A DNA stretch of 64,000 nt from a virus, in the IMG/VR virus record IMGVR_UViG_3300036766_001793, positions 32,001 through 96,000 of that record. One strand, given 5' to 3'. The notes beneath the pieces were generated by a model. The model worked only from the letters and a program-made list of their open reading frames with translations. It was not told where the DNA came from and made no database searches. Shown here piece by piece: positions 3,801-30,460 of this stretch (the stretch's first letter is position 1; every line of letters starts with the position of its first letter). The translations under genes and the position numbers were made by a program.

Positions 3801-6192
3801 CGGTCGCCGTGAAGGAGAGGTCGTACCCGGAGCCGTCAGAGTCACCGACGCCGACCTGGAACCAGTTGGGCGGCCACGAGTCGTCCCGCCTGACGAGGAC
3901 CTGGGCCTCGTTCGAGAAGGCCTGGCCGTCGCTGGCCCGGAGGTACAGGTGGTTGTCGCCGTCCGTGAGGCCAGGGGCGTTGTACGCCACCTGGAAGGAC
4001 CGCTGCGCGCCGGTCTGGGCCGAGCCGGAGGCGACCGACGTCCCTCCGCCCCCGGGGCCCGTCCTGAGGTCCCACTGGATCGAGGCCTGCTCCTGGTCCG
4101 CGGCGGTCAGCCTGAGGGTCCAGCTGGGGTTGCCGGGGCCCGTCCTGGAGCACGCCCCGTACCCGACCGGCCCGGCGGACAGAGTCGGCGGCGTATTCGG
4201 CTGCGGGATCTGGGCCTGGATGGCCAGCTCGTGCGGGTTGAGGGCCCCGTCCCAGAACCTGAGATAGGCGACCGCCGGCGGGGCCGGCACGAAGTCGCCC
4301 GCGAGGGCGGCCCCGGAGGTGGCCGTCCCGGAGGCGAGCAGGGCCCCGGCGCCGGCCGCCTGGGTCCTGAGCTCCCAGTGGAGCTCTCCGGGGGCGGTCG
4401 ACAGGTTGTCGTACAGGGTGGCGGAGAGCCGCCAGCCGGCCCCGCCAGGGGCGACGGCCCCGGAGGACGCCCCGGGGGCGGCGACCTGGTCGGCCAGGAC
4501 GGTGAACGGGAGGGCGTTGCTCTGCTGGAGGGTGCTCGGGTTGTACGCTATGAGGTACACCACCCTGTCCCCGTCCGGGAACGTGTAGGCGGTGGAGGGG
4601 TTCGTCCAGAGGACCGGGTACCTGTCGTCGGTGTCGGTCCCGAAGGTCCCGGGCTCGCCCCCGGGGCCGTAGCCGCCGTTCTGGACGAGCTGCCCGCTGG
4701 AGAGGCCTGCCCCGGTCCTGACCTGCCAGAGGAACTCCTGGGCGGGGGACGCGGCCAGGGTCGCCCGGAGCCTCGCCGCCATGGAGTTCGGGCCGATCCT
4801 GGTCGCCTGGAACGGGGCGGCCTCGGCGTACTCGACCCTCGGCTCCCCGCCGTAGGACAGGGTCACGAAGCCGGCCGTCGCCGGGTCCAGGTACACCTGG
4901 AACCTGGTCTCCTGCGGGTTGCCGGCCCCGTCGTACCACCTGATCCACCTGTCGGCGGGGACCCCGACCACGACCGACGGGTCGGACTGGACGGCGAAGC
5001 TCTCGGCCTGGCCGGCCGTCGCCCTCCCTGATGCCAGGGTGGCCCCGCTTCCATCTCCGCCGGTGCGGATCTCCCACCGCAGCTCGCCTGCGCCCGAGGA
5101 CAGGTCGTCCTGCAGGGCCGTGGTGAGCGACCAGGATCTGTCCGCCTGCACGCTCGGGTTGGCGAACCCGGAGGTCCCCCCGGCGGCCTGGTCGTCCCTC
5201 TTGAGGGCGAACGGGTAGTCCTGGGACACCAGGCCTGGGCCGGCGTTCGGGGAGTTGTCGACCGTGAAGTAGAGGGTCTGGTTCCCGTTCTGCAGCCCGG
5301 GGGCGTCCCTGGCTATCAGGACGGCCTGCCCCACGTCGCTGCCCAGGAAGGCCAGGCCCGCCACGAGCGTCCCGGACCTGCCCGGCCCGGTCCTGACCTG
5401 CCCGGCGAGGCTCCTCCCCGGGATGTTCGGATCGTCGGCTGTGAAGAAGAGGAACCACGGGGTGTTGAGCGGCCCGGTCCTCGTCCACGTGGGGCCGTAG
5501 TACGCCGCCGGCCCGCCGGTGACGGCCGGCGGCTGGGACGGCGGTGGGGCCGGCCCGAGGAGGACGATGGAGGTCGACTGCGCCTGGACGATGGGGGACC
5601 CTGAGCTGGCCGTCCTGTCAGGCGTGAACCCGCCCGAGGCGAGCTGCGCCCACGAGATGTCGCGCCCCATGCCGGCGATGGGGGCCGCGTCGTCGTCGTG
5701 GGAGATGATGCCCGAGGCCCTGGGGCCGACGATCGGCGGGAGGCCGGCCGCCCTCCTGGCCAGGTAGCTGTTGATGAGCGCGCACCCGGCGTAGGGGGTC
5801 GTGACCCCGGGTGAGGTCATGACGGTCCCAGAGGTCTGCCTGGCCCCGGCGACCTGCCCGACCTGCCCGACTCCGCCGCGGAAGGCGTGCGCCTCCAGGG
5901 TGCTCCACGAGACGGCCTGGGAGAACCCGCAGGAGAACGTCGGGCTGGACCCGAGGGCTGCCGTGGCCTCCATGTGCCAGATCTCCGACTTTTGCGAGGG
6001 GCCGTAGTCGCTGTCTATCCTGGAGAAGCCGGCGGGCGCGACGAAGTCGGCCGCGAGGGGGCTGGCCCACTGGACGAAGAGGACTATGTCGTCCCCGGGT
6101 TGGAGTCCGACCCCGCCCTGCCTGGAGAGGGCCGGCGCCGCGTTTGGGTAAGCCCCGGAGGGCGCCCACTTCGCGACGTAGCTCCAGCCCAC
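892..6192 (-). CDS. giant virion-associated peptidoglycan hydrolase: repeated beta domains + SLT/Rpf-like lytic transglycosylase + C-terminal M23 peptidase
   Basis: QHESGG...GIFQM transglycosylase motif (~2050-2420); AID...YGHL...STGPHLHYEV M23 motifs (~900-1330); three repeats of the form GELRWExR...LASGxATxG...FDGAxNP. Confidence 0.85.
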   Translation of the reverse strand: MGWSYVAKWAPSGAYPNAAPALSRQGGVGLQPGDDIVLFVQWASPLAADFVAPAGFSRIDSDYGPSQKSEIWHMEATAALGSSPTFSCGFSQAVSWSTLEAHAFRGGVGQVGQVAGARQTSGTVMTSPGVTTPYAGCALINSYLARRAAGLPPIVGPRASGIISHDDDAAPIAGMGRDISWAQLASGGFTPDRTASSGSPIVQAQSTSIVLLGPAPPPSQPPAVTGGPAAYYGPTWTRTGPLNTPWFLFFTADDPNIPGRSLAGQVRTGPGRSGTLVAGLAFLGSDVGQAVLIARDAPGLQNGNQTLYFTVDNSPNAGPGLVSQDYPFALKRDDQAAGGTSGFANPSVQADRSWSLTTALQDDLSSGAGELRWEIRTGGDGSGATLASGRATAGQAESFAVQSDPSVVVGVPADRWIRWYDGAGNPQETRFQVYLDPATAGFVTLSYGGEPRVEYAEAAPFQATRIGPNSMAARLRATLAASPAQEFLWQVRTGAGLSSGQLVQNGGYGPGGEPGTFGTDTDDRYPVLWTNPSTAYTFPDGDRVVYLIAYNPSTLQQSNALPFTVLADQVAAPGASSGAVAPGGAGWRLSATLYDNLSTAPGELHWELRTQAAGAGALLASGTATSGAALAGDFVPAPPAVAYLRFWDGALNPHELAIQAQIPQPNTPPTLSAGPVGYGACSRTGPGNPSWTLRLTAADQEQASIQWDLRTGPGGGGTSVASGSAQTGAQRSFQVAYNAPGLTDGDNHLYLRASDGQAFSNEAQVLVRRDDSWPPNWFQVGVGDSDGSGYDLSFTATDDLSLDPGEIRWEWRDASDGGGALLAGGTATSGQQVAERVAEPSVGQRWLRVFDGACNPAEREFSVEAAPAQPPPFGVPPRGCGRSVLYDAPAATQQTGGQPRAQVNLCDRVPSGKYVVSRAPRPSLGQLSQQVNGHGLRGVVLKLSSFSRAPGWSPSLQGEDWQVHQAQLLADQLPGQAVGSQLAGAQTLRAGGLVIGGLFELGRDAFESPSLAARAVAHARNRLNLDFVMIDITDEAWKGRMARSKALALFQHVQGQYVRSRHGPRVPRLSQHCPTFAVLPPATAGWGELLSADGCFEPFVNGYSGPATFAAPRVPAGSTSLAAAWQWCRPWDESGRGIGRAELVVDVRNGQSPGATVDLAVTDGAVTVTFPQQRTNWTPRSGLVVYDDLDALSAHGPEGADPSGYWEYDGLNPLEGAVVPVYDPDPFPPIVAGAHFGSAPGTVPAPGGGGSSLSFPPEVEQHRAAVAAVFPAGLVNKALWTVQHESGGLNVQQSGGGPGTGIFQMEACTYPWGFVAYAPCPPYRPLTVGDGLARPIPEQVQAAYDLLLASDAGGVDPNGKEVFYPWGELPGGNYQTGWGSFRAGFPYDLDGGGSPEAGPSQEPPAGLPAPGGSPRIYVSTENWKTGHLGDSHFPQWAEVATPDCAGARGTRRLADGWLELNGIRPLSEPHGTPLPDGQLVLSGTPLPGDDGQLPLFIEVRRSQSDGDLRTKFTLILPVADPARMRDTAGVAPSGIPISRPAITEIVDVAGALHSHAPRKSGGRIPEVWESAEEWCLGATTPAAEIPAPRGTPGARPPPGSGGGAPAASTGCPCEAGFTMTAGCAWHQAVENLQAIDVGVPGGTAVYATCGGVVSYRDWDQRYGPNPPLCAYRDWDGTILGFLPCGYGVMMSVDCDDGQTSMRYGHLDQSMPTSSAFPAVGDHVSAGQQIAVSDNTGFSTGPHLHYEVRVNGVTVCPENLVPAGCVS

Positions 6193-6193
6193 C

Positions 6194-6799
6194 CTATCCC
6201 CCCGCCCCGATGTCCCTCAGGTGCTGCCTGGCGGGGGCGTCGTGGTCCGCGTCGGGGTCTACCAGGCAGAAGCCCTGGGCGGTCGGGCCGTACGGGTGGA
6301 CGCCGCCCTCGATGAGATCCCTGAGCGGCGCGAAGGCAGGCTCGGCCTCAGCCCTCGCGAGCAGCCTGGCGACCCTCCACTGGAGCCCCTGCGCCAGCGC
6401 CCAGGGAGGGCAGTCCGTCCCCGCCCTCGCGTCCCACTCCGGGTCTAGCTGCACCTTCCCGGCTGTCCTGGGGTGGGCCCACCAGACGCCTGAGAGCGGG
6501 ATCCCGGCCGCGACCGAGTGCCGGTCGACCAGCCTCTGGCACTCCCGGTCCGAGAGCTGCCTGCCCGACGGCGCCGGGGGCGCGACCATCCCGGCCGCCT
6601 CCCACACCTGGGCCGGCGCCCCCCACTCGGCCAGGCGCTCGGCCAGCCTGCGCTCGTCCAGGGCCCTGGCCTCGACGACCCTCGCCGGGGTCGCGACCCC
6701 GGACCGGTGCATCTGCGCGACCAGCGCGGCCCTGCTCAAGCGTCCGCCATCCCGGAGGACGGGGATGCAGGGTGCCCCGCCCGGGTCACCCTCCTCCAC
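6194..6799 (-). CDS. hypothetical protein
   Basis: ORF abuts the next gene; plausible composition. Confidence 0.55.
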   Translation of the reverse strand: MEEGDPGGAPCIPVLRDGGRLSRAALVAQMHRSGVATPARVVEARALDERRLAERLAEWGAPAQVWEAAGMVAPPAPSGRQLSDRECQRLVDRHSVAAGIPLSGVWWAHPRTAGKVQLDPEWDARAGTDCPPWALAQGLQWRVARLLARAEAEPAFAPLRDLIEGGVHPYGPTAQGFCLVDPDADHDAPARQHLRDIGAGG

Positions 6800-7089
6800 A
6801 GCTCCTCGATCTCGCGGCCCATGGTCGTCTCGGTCGCCACCTCGAACCTCAGGACCCCGTCGTACTCGAGCACCCTGGCGACCCAGCCCGGCCCCTCAGA
6901 CTGGAGCGTCCTGAACCGGCCGCCGACAGAGGACTCCGAGCAGAGGACCTCGCCCTCACCGGTGGCGCACCCGCAGCCTGCCGAGGCGCACAGGCACAGG
7001 CACTCGCACGCGTCCGCGAGGAGGGCCTTGATGTAGGCCTCCCTGGCCTCCCCGCGCTGGAGGTGCACGGTCCACCCGAATACCTTCAT
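6736..7089 (-). CDS. hypothetical protein with Cys cluster (leaderless)
   Basis: TAAAAT-N6-ATG; CECLCLC. Confidence 0.55.
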   Translation of the reverse strand: MKVFGWTVHLQRGEAREAYIKALLADACECLCLCASAGCGCATGEGEVLCSESSVGGRFRTLQSEGPGWVARVLEYDGVLRFEVATETTMGREIEELWRRVTRAGHPASPSSGMADA

Positions 7090-7816: not shown

Positions 7817-7980
7817 TTCTTCAGGCCCGCCGCGAGCCTGTCGATGTTCGTCGTCCCGTGGAGGTTCGGCCCCGCCTTGACAGAGCGGACCACCGTCACC
7901 TCCACCACCAGGGCGTAGTACCGCTCCCCGCCGCCCTGGATCGCCCTCCAGATCGTCCCGTCGTTGGTCGCCAGCAGCAT
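7813..7980 (-). CDS. small hypothetical protein (55 aa)
   Basis: MLLATNDGTIWRAIQGGGERYYALVVEV...; GC3 codons; ATGA coupling to the ligase. Confidence 0.5.
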   Translation of the reverse strand: MLLATNDGTIWRAIQGGGERYYALVVEVTVVRSVKAGPNLHGTTNIDRLAAGLKK

Positions 7981-8189
7981 CGTCAGTCCCCTCGAGCCTC
8001 GCCCTGAGGCCTTGTATCGTTCCTTCGTAGTGCTCGCGTTGCCGCGCGAGCCCGGTCCGCTTGGCGTTCACGGCGTGGTTCGCTCTCCCCTCTGCCATCA
8101 GTGCCCTGCGGCGCCAGTACCTCAGCGCCTCTGCCGAGTCCGGCCGCGGGGCTTTCAGGACTTTGAGGAGCGCCCGAGTGTAGTCCCCG

Positions 8190-8549
8190 TCACCAGACAT
8201 CGCCGCTCTCGGCCTCGTAGTCCTCGAGGGCCCTCGCCGCCTCTGTGTCCGCTGCCGCGATGGCGTCGGCGCTGATCCTGCCGTAGTTCGTTCTGAGGAG
8301 ACTGGTGCGCCTCAAGGCCCTCAGGGCGACCACCGCGAGCCTGAGCTCTTCCCCCGTCATGGCGGATGGGTCCGGCCCGGAAATCTGTGGCACGAGAGCG
8401 ACTATGCCGCAGAGGCGGCACCGCAGCAATCTCGACCCGCCCACGGTCACGTGGGCGGAGGCCAGAAAGGAGTGCGCGCATCCGGCGGGCAGATCCCTGG
8501 CCGTCGCGTTGCTGAGCTCCGCGCTCACCTGGCTGTCCTTATACTCCAC
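8190..8549 (-). CDS. hypothetical Zn-ribbon/coiled-coil protein
   Basis: CAH...CRLCG; overlaps both neighbours. Confidence 0.55.
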   Translation of the reverse strand: MEYKDSQVSAELSNATARDLPAGCAHSFLASAHVTVGGSRLLRCRLCGIVALVPQISGPDPSAMTGEELRLAVVALRALRRTSLLRTNYGRISADAIAAADTEAARALEDYEAESGDVW

Positions 8550-14726: not shown

Positions 14727-14932
14727 CTGCTGTAGGCCTCAGATTTCATTTTGACGCGTTCGTTCGCCACCACGAACCACCTGAGCACCGTCTGCTCGTC
14801 GGGAGCGCCCTCGATGGCCGGCCACGGGATCCCGCCCTCCAGGAGGACCGCCTCCACGTGGGCCCTCCACAGGTCCTCGTCGGCCATCTGCGCGTCTCTG
14901 TCCCCTAGGAGGAGCTCCCGGTACCTTTTCCC
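14723..14932 (-). CDS. tail assembly chaperone, -1 frameshift extension (gpT-like)
   Basis: the -1 frame after the slippery site reads GKRYRELLLGDRDAQMADEDLWRAH... and ends in an ATGA overlap with the TMP. Confidence 0.75.
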   Translation of the reverse strand, partial: GKRYRELLLGDRDAQMADEDLWRAHVEAVLLEGGIPWPAIEGAPDEQTVLRWFVVANERVKMKSEAYSR

Positions 14933-21221: not shown

Positions 21222-21428
21222 TCACCGTTCCGCGGAGGGGCGGCCCGGCGGAAGCCCGCGGCAGCGGCAGACCAGGTAGCGCCCGCCCTCCCCGCCCGCC
21301 CAGTGGGCGTGGCCGAACGGCTCGTACCCGTGCCTGAACCGCGGGTCCCGGCAGCTGGAGCAGTGGCGCGGCTCGCCGCGCTGGCCAGGGTGGTGCCAGA
21401 AGGAGCCCTCCACCGCCTCACTCGGCAT
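21222..21428 (-). CDS. small Cys/His-rich protein
   Basis: CSSC...H...CRC. Confidence 0.45.
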   Translation of the reverse strand: MPSEAVEGSFWHHPGQRGEPRHCSSCRDPRFRHGYEPFGHAHWAGGEGGRYLVCRCRGLPPGRPSAER

Positions 21429-21675
21429 CGGCCAGCTCCGCCAAGACCTCAGCGTGGCAGGTCTCCGGGGCGCACCAGCACCCGAGCACCAGGCCCTTCA
21501 GCTCGTGCAGGCTGGCCACCAGATCAGGCTGCTGGACCACCCACGCCCGGTACTTCCCGATGACCTCCTCGCGCGTCCCGTCCCTGCCGATGGAGAATGG
21601 GTTGCCCCACCTCGAGGGCCTCCCAACGTACACGTCGTAGAGCCTGGCCCTCTTGACATTCACGACCTCAGTCAA
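21418..21675 (-). CDS. DUF4326 family protein
   Basis: YDVYVGRPSRWGNPF...LGCWCAPETCHAEVL signature; start uncertain (21675 or 21696). Confidence 0.85.
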   Translation of the reverse strand: MTEVVNVKRARLYDVYVGRPSRWGNPFSIGRDGTREEVIGKYRAWVVQQPDLVASLHELKGLVLGCWCAPETCHAEVLAELADAE

Positions 21676-21689
21676 CCCATTGGCCCCTC

Positions 21690-22028
21690 TCAGCATGTGA
21701 TGCACCAGCCCCTCGCGGTCGCCCGCCCGCACCGTGGGCAGGCCCGGTTCGTGACGGACTCCCACGCCGTCGGCTTGTACCGCGGTGGCCCGGGCCTCCT
21801 CGTGGCTCCCGCATCGGCCTCCCCAGCGCCCCGCATCACCTGCCCCTCGGTCATCCCCAGCTCGGCGCCCATCCTGACCACGGACTCCCTAGTGACGTAC
21901 GCAGCCCGATCCACCCTGACGACGGTCAGCTTGTCGTCCCTCATCCATTTCTGGACGGTCCTCCCGGAGGTGAACAGGCGCCTGCAGACCTCGGCGGTGG
22001 TCATCATCTCGTCGGCGGCCTGCGTCAT
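21690..22028 (-). CDS. excisionase/MerR-like HTH DNA-binding protein with C-terminal Zn ribbon
   Basis: MTTAEVCRRLFTSGRTVQKWMRDDKL; CPRC...CITC. Confidence 0.7.
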   Translation of the reverse strand: MTQAADEMMTTAEVCRRLFTSGRTVQKWMRDDKLTVVRVDRAAYVTRESVVRMGAELGMTEGQVMRGAGEADAGATRRPGPPRYKPTAWESVTNRACPRCGRATARGWCITC

Positions 22029-22462
22029 GGCCCGCCGCCGGCGCCGCCGCCCCTGTTGAAGAGGACCACCTCGCCGACCACGTCCAGGCCCCTCTCCAGG
22101 CATGCGGCCCTCAGCTCGGAGAGCGTTCGCCCGGTCGTCCTGACGTCGTCGAGGAGGACGACCCTGGTGCCGGCTGGCGGCCGCGGGCTCCACTCCACGC
22201 CGTGGCCCTTCGGGTTCCACAGGTATCCGGTCCCGACGGTGGCTAGCATGATGGCGCCGCCGGTGCCGGTGGCCACCGGGAGGGCAGGGCCGAACGCGGA
22301 GATCTTCCGGTGCAGGAACTTCCTGAATGTCTCCGGGTGCTCCAGCATCGCGGCCCTGCAGTCCACGTACGTGCCGGCCCGCAGGCCGGAGCTGAGCCTG
22401 AAGTCCCCCTCGAGTGTGTGCCTCCTCAGGATCTCCAGTATGTCGCTGTCCGTCACGTCCAC
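22025..22462 (-). CDS. orotate phosphoribosyltransferase-like type I PRTase (minimal)
   Basis: GDFRLSSG...YVDCR hood; KGHG; PRPP loop VVLLDDVRTTGRT. Confidence 0.8.
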   Translation of the reverse strand: MDVTDSDILEILRRHTLEGDFRLSSGLRAGTYVDCRAAMLEHPETFRKFLHRKISAFGPALPVATGTGGAIMLATVGTGYLWNPKGHGVEWSPRPPAGTRVVLLDDVRTTGRTLSELRAACLERGLDVVGEVVLFNRGGGAGGGP

Positions 22463-22809
22463 ATTACCACCGTCACTTCCTTCCCCGCCCGCCTGGCCCT
22501 CGCTATGGAGTCCGCGGTGCCGCGGCTCTCCCCGTCCCAGAAGGCTACAAGCCTGTCGCTAGCGTCCACTATCAGCTGGTTCCTGGCGTTGGCGCGGCGT
22601 GCGAACTCGCCCCGGCTCGCCGCGCCCTCGGCGTCGACCCGGTAGATCTCGGTCGCCATCCCCAGCCTCCCGGCCTCCTTCTCCGCCACCGAGTCCACCC
22701 CGAGGGCGCCCCCGCTGACGACCACCGTGCCCGGCTGGAGGCCGCGCACGTACCTCGCCACCTGGGCGAGGTCCCCGAATCCGCGGGAGCCGACGATGCC
22801 TACCTTCAT
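22453..22809 (-). CDS. SLOG superfamily protein (YspA/DUF2493-like)
   Basis: IVGSRGF, VVSGGALGVD, RNQLIVD, AFWDGESRGT. Confidence 0.85.
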   Translation of the reverse strand: MKVGIVGSRGFGDLAQVARYVRGLQPGTVVVSGGALGVDSVAEKEAGRLGMATEIYRVDAEGAASRGEFARRANARNQLIVDASDRLVAFWDGESRGTADSIARARRAGKEVTVVMWT

Positions 22810-22842
22810 GTGCCCTGATAGTACCGGGGCCGCGGGCAAGCG

Positions 22843-25704: not shown

Positions 25705-26202
25705 TTATCTTACCGGGCGGCGCGCCCCTCTGATCCAGTCCTCGAGCCTTCTGGCCTCGTCGGACTTGGCGGCCTGGAACTCTGCCCTGGTCATGAGCGG
25801 CCTGGCGTCCTGGTCGAGCTCCTGGACCCCGTAGTCCCGCACGAGCCTGCGGACGCGGTCCCACCTAGCGCCCTCGGGCCTGGCGGCGCTCGGCTCGATC
25901 GCCCTGTACCCGAGCCCCCTGAGGAACCCGTAGGCGAGCCCGGCGGCCCTGGCCTCAGGTCGGACCTCGGCCCGGCGGTGGGCGCGGAGCCCGGCGCGCC
26001 AGCGCCAGTGCCTGTAGTCGACCCTGGGCCTCTTCCTGGTCCCGTAGGGCTTCCCGTCCACGACGGTCGGCTCCGGCCTCGCGTCGGCCTCCGTGGGCCT
26101 CCTGGAGCGGCCCTGGCCCTCCATCCGCCGGATGGTGCGCGCCTCGTCCCCGAGCGAGATGATCTTCACCTTGAGGTAGACCCTCTGGTCCCTGACTTCC
26201 AC
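25705..26202 (-). CDS. basic phage hypothetical protein
   Basis: LKVKIISLGDEARTIR...HRR.EVR.EARAA.LAYGFLRG..Y..IE pattern that I recognise from large phages. Confidence 0.7.
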   Translation of the reverse strand: MEVRDQRVYLKVKIISLGDEARTIRRMEGQGRSRRPTEADARPEPTVVDGKPYGTRKRPRVDYRHWRWRAGLRAHRRAEVRPEARAAGLAYGFLRGLGYRAIEPSAARPEGARWDRVRRLVRDYGVQELDQDARPLMTRAEFQAAKSDEARRLEDWIRGARRPVR

Positions 26203-26503
26203 TTCTGCTGTCTCCTTGCTTGGCCGGTCGTCGACGACTGTTGTTCAGCAAGGGGACGGGGGCGGCCTACCGGTGTATTCAGCCGAACGCCGAGGCGGCC
26301 AGGCACATCGGGGTGTGGCGGCCCCTGAGGGACCGCGCCCACTCCGCCTTGTCCCTACTGCCCCGCGGCGCCGGGACGAACCTTGGGCGCCTCGGCAGCG
26401 GGCGGCCGGTAAAGGACTCTTCGGTCACGATGTGCGCGATCTCGCCGTCCGTCAGGCCCATCTCTTTCAGATCCTTCAGCATGCCTGCCCCCATCATATC
26501 GTG

Positions 26504-26580
26504 TGGAGCGCGCGGGGGGACTCGAACCCCCGGCGGCGCGGGGTTGAAATCCCGCCGCTCTGCCCCTGAGCTACGCGCGC
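26504..26580 (-). tRNA. atypical tRNA: Gly-type acceptor, 8-nt anticodon loop AUUUCAAC (UCA or UUC/UUCA)
   Basis: GCGCGCG/CGCGCGC-U-CCA, D stem GCTC/GAGC, AC stem GCGGG/CCCGC, T arm GGGGG-TTCGAGT-CCCCC. Confidence 0.85.
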
Positions 26581-26589
26581 GGTCCCATG

Positions 26590-26862
26590 TTACCGCGGCG
26601 CGCCGCCGTCGCGGAGCGCGCCCAGCCCGGAGGCGACCTCCAGGCCGCCTGCCTCCTCGGCGTCCGATATGAAGTTGTCCACGGAGCTGGACGCGGAGAT
26701 GGGGCCGCCCCCCGCCGCCTCGAGGGCGGCGCGGTAGTCGGCGACCGGGTCGCCGGTGGAGAACCTCGCGGGGGCGGCCCAGAGGTCCCTGGCCTCGGAG
26801 AGCTCCACGGCCCTGTACGTGCCGGGGTGGAACTCGTCGTAGTCTATCCCGATGATCTTCAT
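26590..26862 (-). CDS. hypothetical protein coupled to Fic
   Basis: ATGA overlap with the Fic stop; MKIIGIDYDEF... Confidence 0.6.
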   Translation of the reverse strand: MKIIGIDYDEFHPGTYRAVELSEARDLWAAPARFSTGDPVADYRAALEAAGGGPISASSSVDNFISDAEEAGGLEVASGLGALRDGGAPR

Positions 26863-27401
26863 CTCCCTCTCCTCCCTGGTGGTCGCGCCGCGTTCTGCGC
26901 CTCCCACTCCTCGATGCTCCGGTAGTAGGCGAACCTGTCCTCGTACCGCACGGTGAGCCACCGGAGCCCCACGGTGAGCCTGAGGGCGTTCATCCACAGC
27001 CTCCCCGTCCTGCCGTTGCCGTCCCAGAAGGGGTGGACCCACTCCAGCCTGTGGTGCATGCCCCAGCACCACCCCTCCGGGTCCTCGGGCACGGCCGCCG
27101 CCGCCGCCGCGAGCAGGGCCGGGAACTCGCCCCTGACCTCGGCCGGGCCCATCTTCAGGCGGCCGCCGACCGACACGCCGACCTGCCTGAGCTCGCCCGG
27201 GAACTTCCCGGGCTGCGAGGCCATCAGCCTCCTGTGGATCCCCAGCGGGTCCAGCCACTCCTCCGGTCGGGCCGCTACGCCCCTGGCCACGGAGAGGTGG
27301 TCGTCGTACAGCGGGTGCCCCGGCGCGTCCGGCTCGCCCTCTATCCGGTTGGACTGGGCGACGAACTCGGCGAGGTCGGCGTCAGGCGTCTGTCTCTGCA
27401 T
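26859..27401 (-). CDS. Fic domain protein (AMP transferase)
   Basis: HPFWDGNGRTGR catalytic motif; SNRIEG autoinhibitory motif; TACGAT-N6-ATG. Confidence 0.92.
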   Translation of the reverse strand: MQRQTPDADLAEFVAQSNRIEGEPDAPGHPLYDDHLSVARGVAARPEEWLDPLGIHRRLMASQPGKFPGELRQVGVSVGGRLKMGPAEVRGEFPALLAAAAAAVPEDPEGWCWGMHHRLEWVHPFWDGNGRTGRLWMNALRLTVGLRWLTVRYEDRFAYYRSIEEWEAQNAARPPGRRGR

Positions 27402-29341: not shown

Positions 29342-29649
29342 GGCGCCGTCCCGCCGAGCCGTGCGCCCCTCTCTAGGAGTGGCGCCATCGCCACGTCGGG
29401 GTGGCGCGAGAGGCGGCCCACCGCATCCATAGGAACATTAGCGCACAGCGTCCGCCGCGACGCGGAGGACTCGGTAATTACGCCGGTGAGGCTCCATACG
29501 AGGTCTTCCACCGGGCGGAACCCCTCCATCCGCGGCCCCGGCTCAAGGTCGTCCCTAAGCCTAATCCCCACATCCGGGAACCATTTCAGCCTGGCCGCCA
29601 GCTCGGGGGAGACCCGATCGGTATCCGTCAGGTCGTAGTCGAGCGTCAT
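29338..29649 (-). CDS. hypothetical protein
   Basis: ATGA-coupled to the HNH stop. Confidence 0.5.
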   Translation of the reverse strand: MTLDYDLTDTDRVSPELAARLKWFPDVGIRLRDDLEPGPRMEGFRPVEDLVWSLTGVITESSASRRTLCANVPMDAVGRLSRHPDVAMAPLLERGARLGGTAP

Positions 29650-30353
29650 AGTGGCCCCCTTCTCGCCGTCAACATGCCGAGGTCGGAGGGCCACTCGTTC
29701 TTGCGGTGGCCGCCCAGGTGGCAGGGCGTGCACAGGGTCGCTAGGTTCCCGGGCTGGCAATCCCGCTTGTCGTAGTTCAGGTGGTGCGCGTGCGGGCTCC
29801 CGCCGCGGAGGTCCGCCCCGCACAGGGCGCACGCGTACCCGTCCCTCTCCCAGACCCTGCGCCGGGTCCTGGGCCACCCCGGCGGGTACGCCTGGCCCGC
29901 CGCCGGCGCCCTCCCGTGGGCCCGGCAGCACCCCTTGACCCTGGCGAGCGAGGGGGAGGTGACGATGACCGCGTCGCAGCCGGGGTAGTGGCAGGTGCGT
30001 GAGACAGACTGGTCCTTGTTGGGAGGTTTGGCTCCCTTCGGCCATTTCCAGCTCTTCCCTTTGGTCGTGCCGCCCGCCAGGCGTCTGGGGTCGTCCTCGG
30101 GCCATTTATGACCCAGAGTTGGGGTCTTGCCGGCCCTCTTCTCTCGCAGCTTTGACTTGGTCTCGTCGCTGTGGACGCCGCACCCGCACCCCTCCTGGCA
30201 CGGCTGGCGGCCGGCGGGCTCGATCCCGAGCCTCTTGAATGCGTAGCTCACAGCGGAGACAGAGCACCCGACCTCCTCTGCGACGTGCCTCAGGGGCTCC
30301 TCTGCCCTGGCGATGACCCAGTCCTGGTCTGCTAGCTGCGGATACCTTGGCAC
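29646..30353 (-). CDS. free-standing HNH homing endonuclease (HTH + NUMOD-like + HNH)
   Basis: RDGYACALCG...HAHHLNYDKRD...NLATLCTPCH; HSDETKSKL; TATCAT-N6-GTG. Confidence 0.88.
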   Translation of the reverse strand: MPRYPQLADQDWVIARAEEPLRHVAEEVGCSVSAVSYAFKRLGIEPAGRQPCQEGCGCGVHSDETKSKLREKRAGKTPTLGHKWPEDDPRRLAGGTTKGKSWKWPKGAKPPNKDQSVSRTCHYPGCDAVIVTSPSLARVKGCCRAHGRAPAAGQAYPPGWPRTRRRVWERDGYACALCGADLRGGSPHAHHLNYDKRDCQPGNLATLCTPCHLGGHRKNEWPSDLGMLTARRGPL

Positions 30354-30460
30354 GCTCACATGATACCGGATCCACCGACGGACAGGGTGCAGGAAGTAGC
30401 AAAGGCTCGCTCTGCGCTCCATTGATGTCAGTATTAGGTGTCTTTATTATTGGACCATGG

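Follow-up and report, generated by a model that had tools for sequence, protein, structure and literature searches.

A phage tRNA with an eight-nucleotide anticodon loop that probably decodes a four-base stop codon in an adjoining regulatory leader

Findings

In a 64,000-nucleotide stretch of phage DNA (hereinafter the window; bases 32001-96000 of the 165,484-bp IMG/VR record IMGVR_UViG_3300036766_001793, with a GC content of about 68% and a completeness of 87%), a solitary tRNA gene on the minus strand encodes an anticodon loop of eight nucleotides and is followed by a leader open reading frame (ORF) of 72 codons, p72, which ends in UGA followed by A, and by the gene for a 165-amino-acid protein, p165. 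The interpretation we favor as probable, on comparative sequence evidence, is that the UUCA anticodon of this tRNA opens the leader at the four-base codon UGAA, that the ribosome then stalls at an Arg-Pro-Pro-Pro (RPPP) motif in the +1 frame, and that this stall unmasks the Shine-Dalgarno (SD) sequence of p165. On a broader scale, we consider it fairly likely that phage tRNAs with eight-nucleotide loops, containing UUCA or UCUA, decode UGAA or UAGA in an adjoining leader as a natural four-base-codon switch in which an R-x-P-P (RxPP) motif unmasks the ribosome-binding site, so that the tRNA would be a dedicated translational regulator and not a general decoder. The preliminary description of this DNA, made from the sequence of the window alone, had raised the possibility that UUCA reads UGAA with a +1 shift, which agrees with the comparative evidence presented here; it missed, however, the probable target, namely, the leader that adjoins the tRNA and would gate the neighboring gene.

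Under this scheme, the tRNA would be the trans-acting key of a phage module of three parts, the tRNA, the leader and p165. Ribosomes completing the leader would reach UGA-A, where most of them would terminate; when the UUCA tRNA, which we infer to be expressed and charged, probably with glycine, takes the site and consumes four bases, the ribosome would go on in the +1 frame through Tyr-Thr-Gly-Arg-Pro-Pro-Pro. Given the usual ribosome footprint, a ribosome terminating at the UGA would stop short of the segment that pairs with the SD (the anti-SD arm), and this arm would be covered by a paused ribosome whose P and A sites are occupied by proline codons. A ribosome pausing at that point would thus free the SD of p165 for translation.

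A connection between the tRNA and the leader is also seen in the comparison of p165 loci. We fetched 80 more viral loci encoding p165 homologs, of which 76 were non-duplicate and were used. The leader was called as the nearest stop codon at most six codons upstream of R[AGSPD]PP within the 320 nt preceding the gene and, independently of this call, any suppressor-like tRNA within 4 kb was recorded. Three classes of leaders emerged. Those with UGAA (27 loci) are accompanied by a tRNA with a UUCA eight-nucleotide loop in 22 cases and, in one more, by a tRNA that ARAGORN labels 'tca' and that has the loop CUUUCAAU; the UAGA leaders are accompanied by a UCUA eight-nucleotide loop in eight cases, with no tRNA found in two; and the leaders with an in-frame UAG are accompanied by a normal seven-nucleotide CUA loop in six cases, with none found in one. 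A tRNA of another type was not found in any of the three classes, so the type of the stop tracks the anticodon in 37 of the 37 loci that have both. No in-frame UGA leaders were found among the 76 loci by these automatic calls. Because the leader class matches the tRNA loop across the loci, the eight-nucleotide loop apparently serves leaders that require a +1 step, and the seven-nucleotide loop those that require in-frame read-through.

The UAGA/UCUA combination appears to constitute a second natural four-base pair. The loci of this sibling class are L094, L126, L128, L132, L133, L134, L148 and L150 (about 100-400 nt to either side of the p165 homolog); in their leaders, UAG-A is followed by RxPP in the +1 frame, and the eight-nucleotide loops of the tRNAs (AUUCUAAC, CUUCUAAU, ACUCUAAA and similar ones) contain UCUA.

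The reading frames of the leader in the window argue for the same conclusion. After the UGA, the 0 frame runs through three codons (IHR) to a UAG that overlaps the AGG arginine codon, and only the +1 frame continues (YTGRPPPSPC), such that plain triplet read-through of UGA would halt at the UAG ahead of the proline codons and miss the RPPP. Among the close relatives, the leader is MSFG[UGAA]WPGTRSPPPVR in one locus (L003) and ...G[UGAA]CTGRSPP... in three others (L066, L069 and L071), with the motif UUCGGCUGAAU common to these and the window; the p72 homologs vary in length from 65-68 amino acids (L066 and L069) to 14 codons (L071) and four codons (L003). Hand checking revealed the same design, a UGAA leader together with a tRNA with a UUCA eight-nucleotide loop, in each of five unrelated contigs (L059, L063, L072, L073 and L074). 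An R-x-P-P is conserved in the +1 frame of every UGAA leader examined, the 0 frame of the hand-translated leaders mostly ends within two to four codons, and an A follows the UGA in all leaders of the UGAA class (10 of 10 checked by hand, 27 of 27 called automatically). Fifteen of the 40 four-base leaders, that of the window included, have a 0-frame UAG overlapping the arginine codon (U-AGR), and none of the seven in-frame leaders does.

Two further features of the leaders deserve mention. In the window (26244-26247, minus strand) and in L003 (approximately 14874-14877), an A also comes directly after the stop that closes the +1 extension (UGA-A); a second four-base event there would miss the p165 frame, and the feature is absent from other lineages. 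In L071, L061 and also L072, the frame after the leader stop runs directly into that of p165, which implies that suppression would yield a p165 fusion lengthened at its N terminus, either replacing or accompanying the unmasking of the SD.

The putative mechanism also calls for an arrest motif and for a sequestered SD. The motifs found across the leaders are RPPP, RSPP, RGPP, RAPP and RDPP, which fall exactly within the RxPP set of PMC12992588: according to work cited in that paper, RxPP with G, A, S or P at x arrests ribosomes in Escherichia coli, and Asp or Ser at this position partly retains the arrest activity of ApdA/ApdP (PMC12992588). In minimum free energy (MFE) folds of the window, the SD arm of p165 pairs with an anti-SD arm that overlaps the proline codons and extends just past them, and the arms co-vary in close relatives (CCUUGCU/AGCAAGG in the window versus CCUGCUAGU/ACUAGCAGG in L071). 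For 45 loci, we calculated how strongly the SD region forms a duplex with the 45 nt that follow the arginine codon, relative to shuffled controls; the mean z of the duplex energy is -2.7, with z < -1.64 in 36 of the 45 loci, and in 43 of the 45 the distance from RxPP to the start codon is nearly constant at 52-77 nt. Thus, as in RAPP-like leaders, an R-x-P-P with a small x is found close to where a short upstream ORF ends, and the SD is paired with a segment that a stalled ribosome would cover. Some leaders of the cultured phages described below end in K-P-P-stop rather than in RxPP.

With regard to its overall structure, the tRNA is a regular cloverleaf. It has the canonical cloverleaf features of the Rfam family RF00005, apart from the seven-nucleotide anticodon loop, and scores 48.5 bits against this model (gathering score 29, E 2.5e-7), within the range of 32-66 bits of the tRNAs in the cluster of the same phage. 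Reading from the sequence, the acceptor GCGCGCG/CGCGCGC includes G1-C72, C2-G71 and G3-C70, the discriminator is U73, and CCA is encoded; the D arm is GCUC-AGGGGCA-GAGC, the T arm GGGGG-UUCGAGU-CCCCC, the variable region has 6 nt, and U8, A9, A14 and G18G19 are present. The anticodon stem GCGGG/CCCGC, of 5 bp, closes the loop A-U-U-U-C-A-A-C, to which ARAGORN assigns the four-base anticodon 'ttca', the outcome of a check that the preliminary description had proposed. As in quadruplet-decoding tRNAs, the loop has eight nucleotides and the four bases UUCA are complementary to the proposed codon. The cloverleaf with its encoded CCA and eight-nucleotide loop had been recognized in the preliminary description and is borne out by ARAGORN, by the Rfam score and by direct parsing; the glycine-type acceptor that it reported is likewise present.

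Indeed, the tRNA carries U73, G1-C72, C2-G71 and G3-C70 of the glycyl-tRNA synthetase (GlyRS) identity set, and the combination GCG...U73, which agrees with the identity rules of GlyRS, is otherwise confined to tRNA-Gly among approximately 175 tRNAs of six related phages. The C35 and C36 of tRNA-Gly are found in part: with UCA taken as positions 34-36, there is C35 but A36. Isotyping by overall similarity was uninformative, with mixed best matches (Lys, Arg, Gly), and an exact search with the anticodon arm in viral contigs yielded one chance match that is not a tRNA. Acceptor stems and discriminators show free variation when the class is considered more widely, and in many of its members the D arm is reduced and the length is 69-72 nt; because of the variation in acceptor stems and discriminators, the glycine identity is probably incidental, and the nature of the inserted residue probably unimportant.

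The eight-nucleotide loop is not peculiar to the window. Nine related phage loci were fetched via the major capsid protein, and in one of these, L003, a homologous tRNA in a similar position has the loop CUUUCAAU. Three further assemblies, reached via homologs of the downstream protein, have the loops ACUUCAAA (L066 and L071) and ACUUCAGA (L069). Accordingly, all five homologs from separate assemblies, the window tRNA included, have an eight-nucleotide loop, and the search for the same loop in related phages that had been suggested earlier returned eight-nucleotide loops in four other assemblies, and in none of them a loop of seven. In the five-sequence alignment, 97% of the stem cells are paired, compared with 38-70% in slid controls, and five stem pairs are changed on both sides, among them the loop-closing pair, which is G-C in the window tRNA and A-U in the homologs. 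Given that five assemblies keep the loop while the stems show compensatory changes, the loop is conserved and under selection. The loop of the window tRNA, AUUUCAAC, recurs in the unrelated phages L086, L104, L111, L146 and L151 and in Phage NCTB.

Versions of the module are carried by cultured phages, with the amber variant in DLP5, DSS3_MAL1 and BUCT-ZZ01 and the UGAA variant in Phage NCTB. In Stenotrophomonas phage DLP5 (L157, MG189906, 49873-50342), MK[UAG]VYKPP-stop precedes DLP05_071, which is directly followed by tRNA-Sup-CTA; the leader is MKS[UAG]IRPPP-stop in Bacteriophage DSS3_MAL1 (L160) and ...S[UAG]INLKPP-stop in Synechococcus phage BUCT-ZZ01 (L161). In Phage NCTB (L159), MLNN[UGAA]CNRGPP is found together with a tRNA with the loop AUUUCAAC. 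Agrobacterium phage OLIVR1 (L158, 1324-1500) falls outside the simple four-base rule: an annotated tRNA-Val, with the anticodon region GCCCUAAC, readable as an eight- or a six-nucleotide loop, precedes gp84, a p165 homolog labeled 'putative structural protein', and lies upstream of a leader VIEPL[UAG]IKKPP-stop. In L074, a phage with the UGAA module, a Ro60/TROVE protein and an RlaP-like nucleotidyltransferase are encoded among the tRNA genes (5237-6847 and 7837-8354), an RNA-repair or quality-control context.

The proposed gated gene itself belongs to a large family. A profile search with p165 retrieved 3,656 cluster representatives at E<=1e-3, and p165 is the only protein common to 81 loci, with no other conserved neighbors beyond the tRNA and the leader, which is why we define the module as these three components. 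No match to p165 was found in Pfam, PHROG or NCBIfam, by tblastn against GenBank phages or, in usable form, in the protein atlas. The AlphaFold2 model (mean predicted local distance difference test, pLDDT, 81.6) shows a basic helical hairpin with further helices, and fold searches (Foldseek PDB, VIA-align wide) returned generic helical or coiled hairpins only. Our guess is that p165 might be a basic RNA- or ribosome-binding regulator.

Stop codon usage and the search for recoded genes

In the genome of the phage to which the window belongs (G000), crude gene calls end in TGA in approximately 45% of cases, in TAG in approximately 45% and in TAA in approximately 10%. The TAG share is unusually high, 31-52% of crude gene calls, in this genome and five related ones (G001-G005), for a GC content of 59-68%; TAG is about as frequent as TGA in G000, G002 and G004, more frequent in G003 and G005, and about half as frequent in G001. 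A genome-wide scan for coding signal past stops showed no excess at TGA and was dominated by tightly packed genes, and when G000 and G002 were compared by tblastn with the genomes of three to five relatives, no gene called for read-through of TGA or for a shift to +1. Neither the seven-nucleotide UCA loop nor the in-frame UGA codons within genes that mark a triplet opal suppressor or a UGA-reassigning tRNA are seen here, the latter in a comparison of conserved genes with five related phages. Candidates for split genes or in-frame stops in G000 and G002, for example, at genome position 123187, were rejected as shadow-frame or N-terminal-extension artifacts. An 877-amino-acid gene that ends in TGAA with a neighbor in the +1 frame was set aside as well, inasmuch as it is laid out as two genes also in G001, where the tRNA is missing. 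TGAA accounts for 11 of 130 TGA stops in two phages with the tRNA and 34 of 200 in four without it, a comparison that is confounded by GC content and on which we do not rely.

Alternative explanations

Several observations weigh against the UGAA-gated leader. For four of the 27 UGAA leaders, a tRNA was not found within 4 kb. The module is missing from G001, the closest of the nearly complete relatives (98% complete), and for this reason is accessory. The leader in the window is atypical in that it runs to 72 codons and lacks a clear SD. The 89-nt region from the leader to the SD of p165, taken as a whole, folds no better than shuffled sequences (z -0.93), so the case for SD sequestration is one for the specific arms. 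RPPP is less studied than RAPP and RGPP, and elongation factor P (EF-P) may relieve a stall at RPPP. With respect to the decoding step, the fourth codon position is A throughout and faces U throughout, a pair with no covariation of its own, and in the closest clade (ACUUCAAA) a C precedes UUCA on the 5' side, from which it follows that the invariant U could be U33. Reading of the UCA triplet followed by a +1 slip could therefore take the place of true four-base pairing, two routes that comparison of sequences does not separate.

The triplet-based alternative in its plain form, an opal suppressor in which UCA is presented with one loop base bulged out and glycine is inserted at UGA throughout the genome or in host genes, has in its favor that UCA is flanked by U and A as in a normal loop, that the acceptor is glycine-like and that ARAGORN labels the closest homologs 'tca'. 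Nevertheless, we regard it as unlikely: only three codons separate the UGA from a UAG in the 0 frame, the conserved RxPP lies only in the +1 frame, no in-frame UGA leader was called automatically among the 76 loci, in-frame UAG leaders use ordinary seven-nucleotide CUA loops, and TGA ends nearly half of the genes, with no conserved gene that needs its read-through. Read-through of UGA by the bulged-A loop had been proposed in the preliminary description and is disfavored by this evidence for a +1 step; the purposes suggested there, general opal read-through, sabotage of the host or a nuclease decoy, found no support. It is quite improbable, too, that the tRNA has a non-decoding role, whether as a decoy that draws off host anticodon nucleases, as a variant that withstands them, or as a processing signal at which RNase P/Z cuts the operon transcript. 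Such a role would fit the tight packing of the tRNA between ORFs, with no promoter or terminator predicted nearby, and the short members of the class with reduced D arms, but it leaves the match between anticodon and leader stop across three classes unexplained, and the tRNA retains all elbow and acceptor features needed for translation.

A stop codon followed by a +1 continuation is also the arrangement of the prfB frameshift site, and the leader could formally sense release factor 2 through slippage in the P site, with the odd tRNA being a mere passenger. The codons that precede the four-base site are, however, diverse and non-slippery (GGC in the window; ACC, ACG, AAC and UUG elsewhere) and cannot re-pair in the +1 frame, which argues against slippage independent of the tRNA, and the tracking of the stop by the anticodon in all matched loci, UAGA with UCUA included, makes this explanation highly unlikely. 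Still less can be said for a tRNA-Glu-like decoder of GAA (UUC) with an extra 3' loop base that would cause frameshifting at GAA-N. The phage's own tRNA-Glu(UUC) does have the loop CUUUCAA; but this tRNA-Glu is already present, the glutamate tRNAs of the phage carry GGC or GGU with A73, unlike the glycine-type acceptor and discriminator found here (the conflict with the acceptor had been correctly pointed out in the preliminary description), and the sibling UCUA/UAGA class indicates that complementarity to a stop is the selected feature. Finally, the closest nearly complete relative has no such tRNA, as might be the case if it were an assembly error or a decaying pseudo-tRNA, a prospect that is barely conceivable given that five independent assemblies retain the eight-nucleotide loop, with compensatory changes, and that it recurs in over 30 unrelated phage contigs; assembly error, in particular, can be dismissed on these comparisons.

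Genomic context

The coordinates of the module and of the adjacent genes are given in Table 1. The gene order on the minus strand is Fic, p92, tRNA, p72 and p165. The tRNA is 36.5 kb away from the single cluster of approximately 40 tRNA genes of the phage, in line with its earlier characterization as solitary. It had also been placed just downstream of Fic, which does lie upstream, although the 92-aa ORF p92 intervenes; the lysis genes said to be about 2 kb away were not recovered, the only hint of lysis being a sub-threshold holin match 3.2 kb downstream. Homologs of p92 adjoin the tRNA or p165 in L003, L066 and L071, and p92 is tied to the module only in this clade; the Fic gene is found in L071 too, and its use as a synteny probe recovered no relatives. 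Megablast of the region against GenBank phages gave no match.

Table 1. Features of the module and its surroundings in the window
Feature	Coordinates	Strand	Remarks
p165, proposed gated gene	25705..26202	-	165 aa; GTG start; basic, helical
SD arm of p165, AGCAAGG-GAC	26210..26220	-	contains AAGGAG; paired with anti-SD arm; MFE folds
+1-frame extension, Tyr-Thr-Gly-Arg-Pro-Pro-Pro-Ser-Pro-Cys-stop	26245..26277	-	RPPP codons 26257-26268
Anti-SD arm, GUC-CCUUGCU	26247..26257	-	from last base of third Pro codon; MFE folds
0-frame UAG back-stop	26267..26269	-	overlaps AGG Arg codon; sequence
UGAA, proposed four-base codon	26278..26281	-	stop UGA plus A; faces UUCA
p72, leader ORF	26279..26497	-	72 aa; ends Ser-Ala-Phe-Gly-UGA; starts 6 nt after tRNA; third-position GC (GC3) 0.89
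tRNA	26504..26580	-	77 nt; encoded CCA; Gly-like acceptor; 8-nt anticodon loop; ARAGORN, Rfam, sequence, covariation
8-nt anticodon loop AUUUCAAC	26543..26550	-	four-base anticodon UUCA at 26545-26548
p92, small ORF	26590..26868	-	ends 9 nt before tRNA
Fic-domain gene	26859..27401	-	context only; Pfam PF02661, E 9.8e-12

Other genes of the vicinity include a 258-aa HNH endonuclease (29646-30422), with the capsid gene on one side and the module on the other, and, among the downstream accessory genes, a SLOG/DprA-like gene on the minus strand (PF02481, E 2.3e-7) that overlaps a weak phosphoribosyltransferase-like ORF (22025-22839), and a gene for a DUF4326 protein (E 7e-26; 21418-21765, minus strand). 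A second odd tRNA lies in the cluster of G000, past the end of the window (104126-104198, minus strand); ARAGORN assigns to it a two-base 'anticodon' (cg), an indication that its anticodon loop is shortened.

Relation to known systems

The components of the putative switch are not without parallels. The tRNA-Gly(UCA) of genetic code 25 and the glyT-derived opal suppressors of E. coli likewise have UCA in the loop together with a glycine-type acceptor and U73; these tRNAs, however, have seven-nucleotide loops and read UGA as a triplet, whereas the phage tRNA has an eight-nucleotide loop, for which the +1 frame is favored by the evidence. Further precedents are the laboratory +1 suppressors (sufD, sufA6/SufB2 and sufJ) and the engineered quadruplet tRNAs, which also show an eight-nucleotide loop, four complementary bases and a +1 outcome. 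In contrast to these selected mutants and designs, the phage tRNA is natural and conserved, is directed to a stop codon and the base that follows it, and has a dedicated adjoining target; the engineered versions include UAGN decoders (bioRxiv 10.1101/2020.12.31.424971; PMC9094753; PMC4764823).

The arrest leaders of the RAPP/RGPP type (ApdA, ApdP and SecM, among others; PMC10951233, PMC12992588, PMC7897499) similarly contain R-x-P-P in a short upstream ORF, and there, too, the paused ribosome would open a hairpin that hides the SD. The known leaders sense protein export or insertion with the motif in the normal frame, whereas in the phage leader the motif would be reachable only after a dedicated tRNA decodes the stop, and the gated gene differs as well, being an uncharacterized phage protein. 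The suppressor tRNAs of stop-recoded phages, such as those of crAss-like phages (PMC7886860) and the theta-ribozyme-linked tRNAs (PMC10879173), are likewise phage-encoded and complementary to a stop codon; recoded phages, however, have many in-frame stops in late genes, whereas no recoding was seen in the present phage, where the single target identified is a regulatory leader. None of the quadruplet tRNAs from the laboratory, the RAPP leaders and the suppressors of recoded phages covers a natural tRNA dedicated to a four-base stop codon in a regulatory leader, and we found no description of natural eight-nucleotide-loop phage tRNAs or of stop-gated arrest leaders in the open-access full-text literature. 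To our knowledge, four-base decoding by expanded loops has been known from laboratory suppressor mutants and synthetic biology, but not from nature in the form of a conserved system that has a target of its own.

Implications

There is a consequence for annotation, in that such tRNAs are currently missed or mislabeled as selenocysteine (SeC), pyrrolysine (Pyl), Ile, Val or '???'. If the interpretation is correct, matched quadruplet pairs, UGAA/UUCA and UAGA/UCUA, would have evolved many times in phages and would provide ready-made efficient quadruplet tRNAs as well as natural material for distinguishing a triplet-plus-slip mode from four-base pairing. The finding also singles out p165 as a very large uncharacterized phage family, in most of the sampled loci of which a stop-gated leader lies beside a suppressor-type tRNA; this arrangement suggests a link of p165 to translation or to the timing of infection. 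The module would then represent a new kind of gene switch, one in which a tRNA acts as the regulator.
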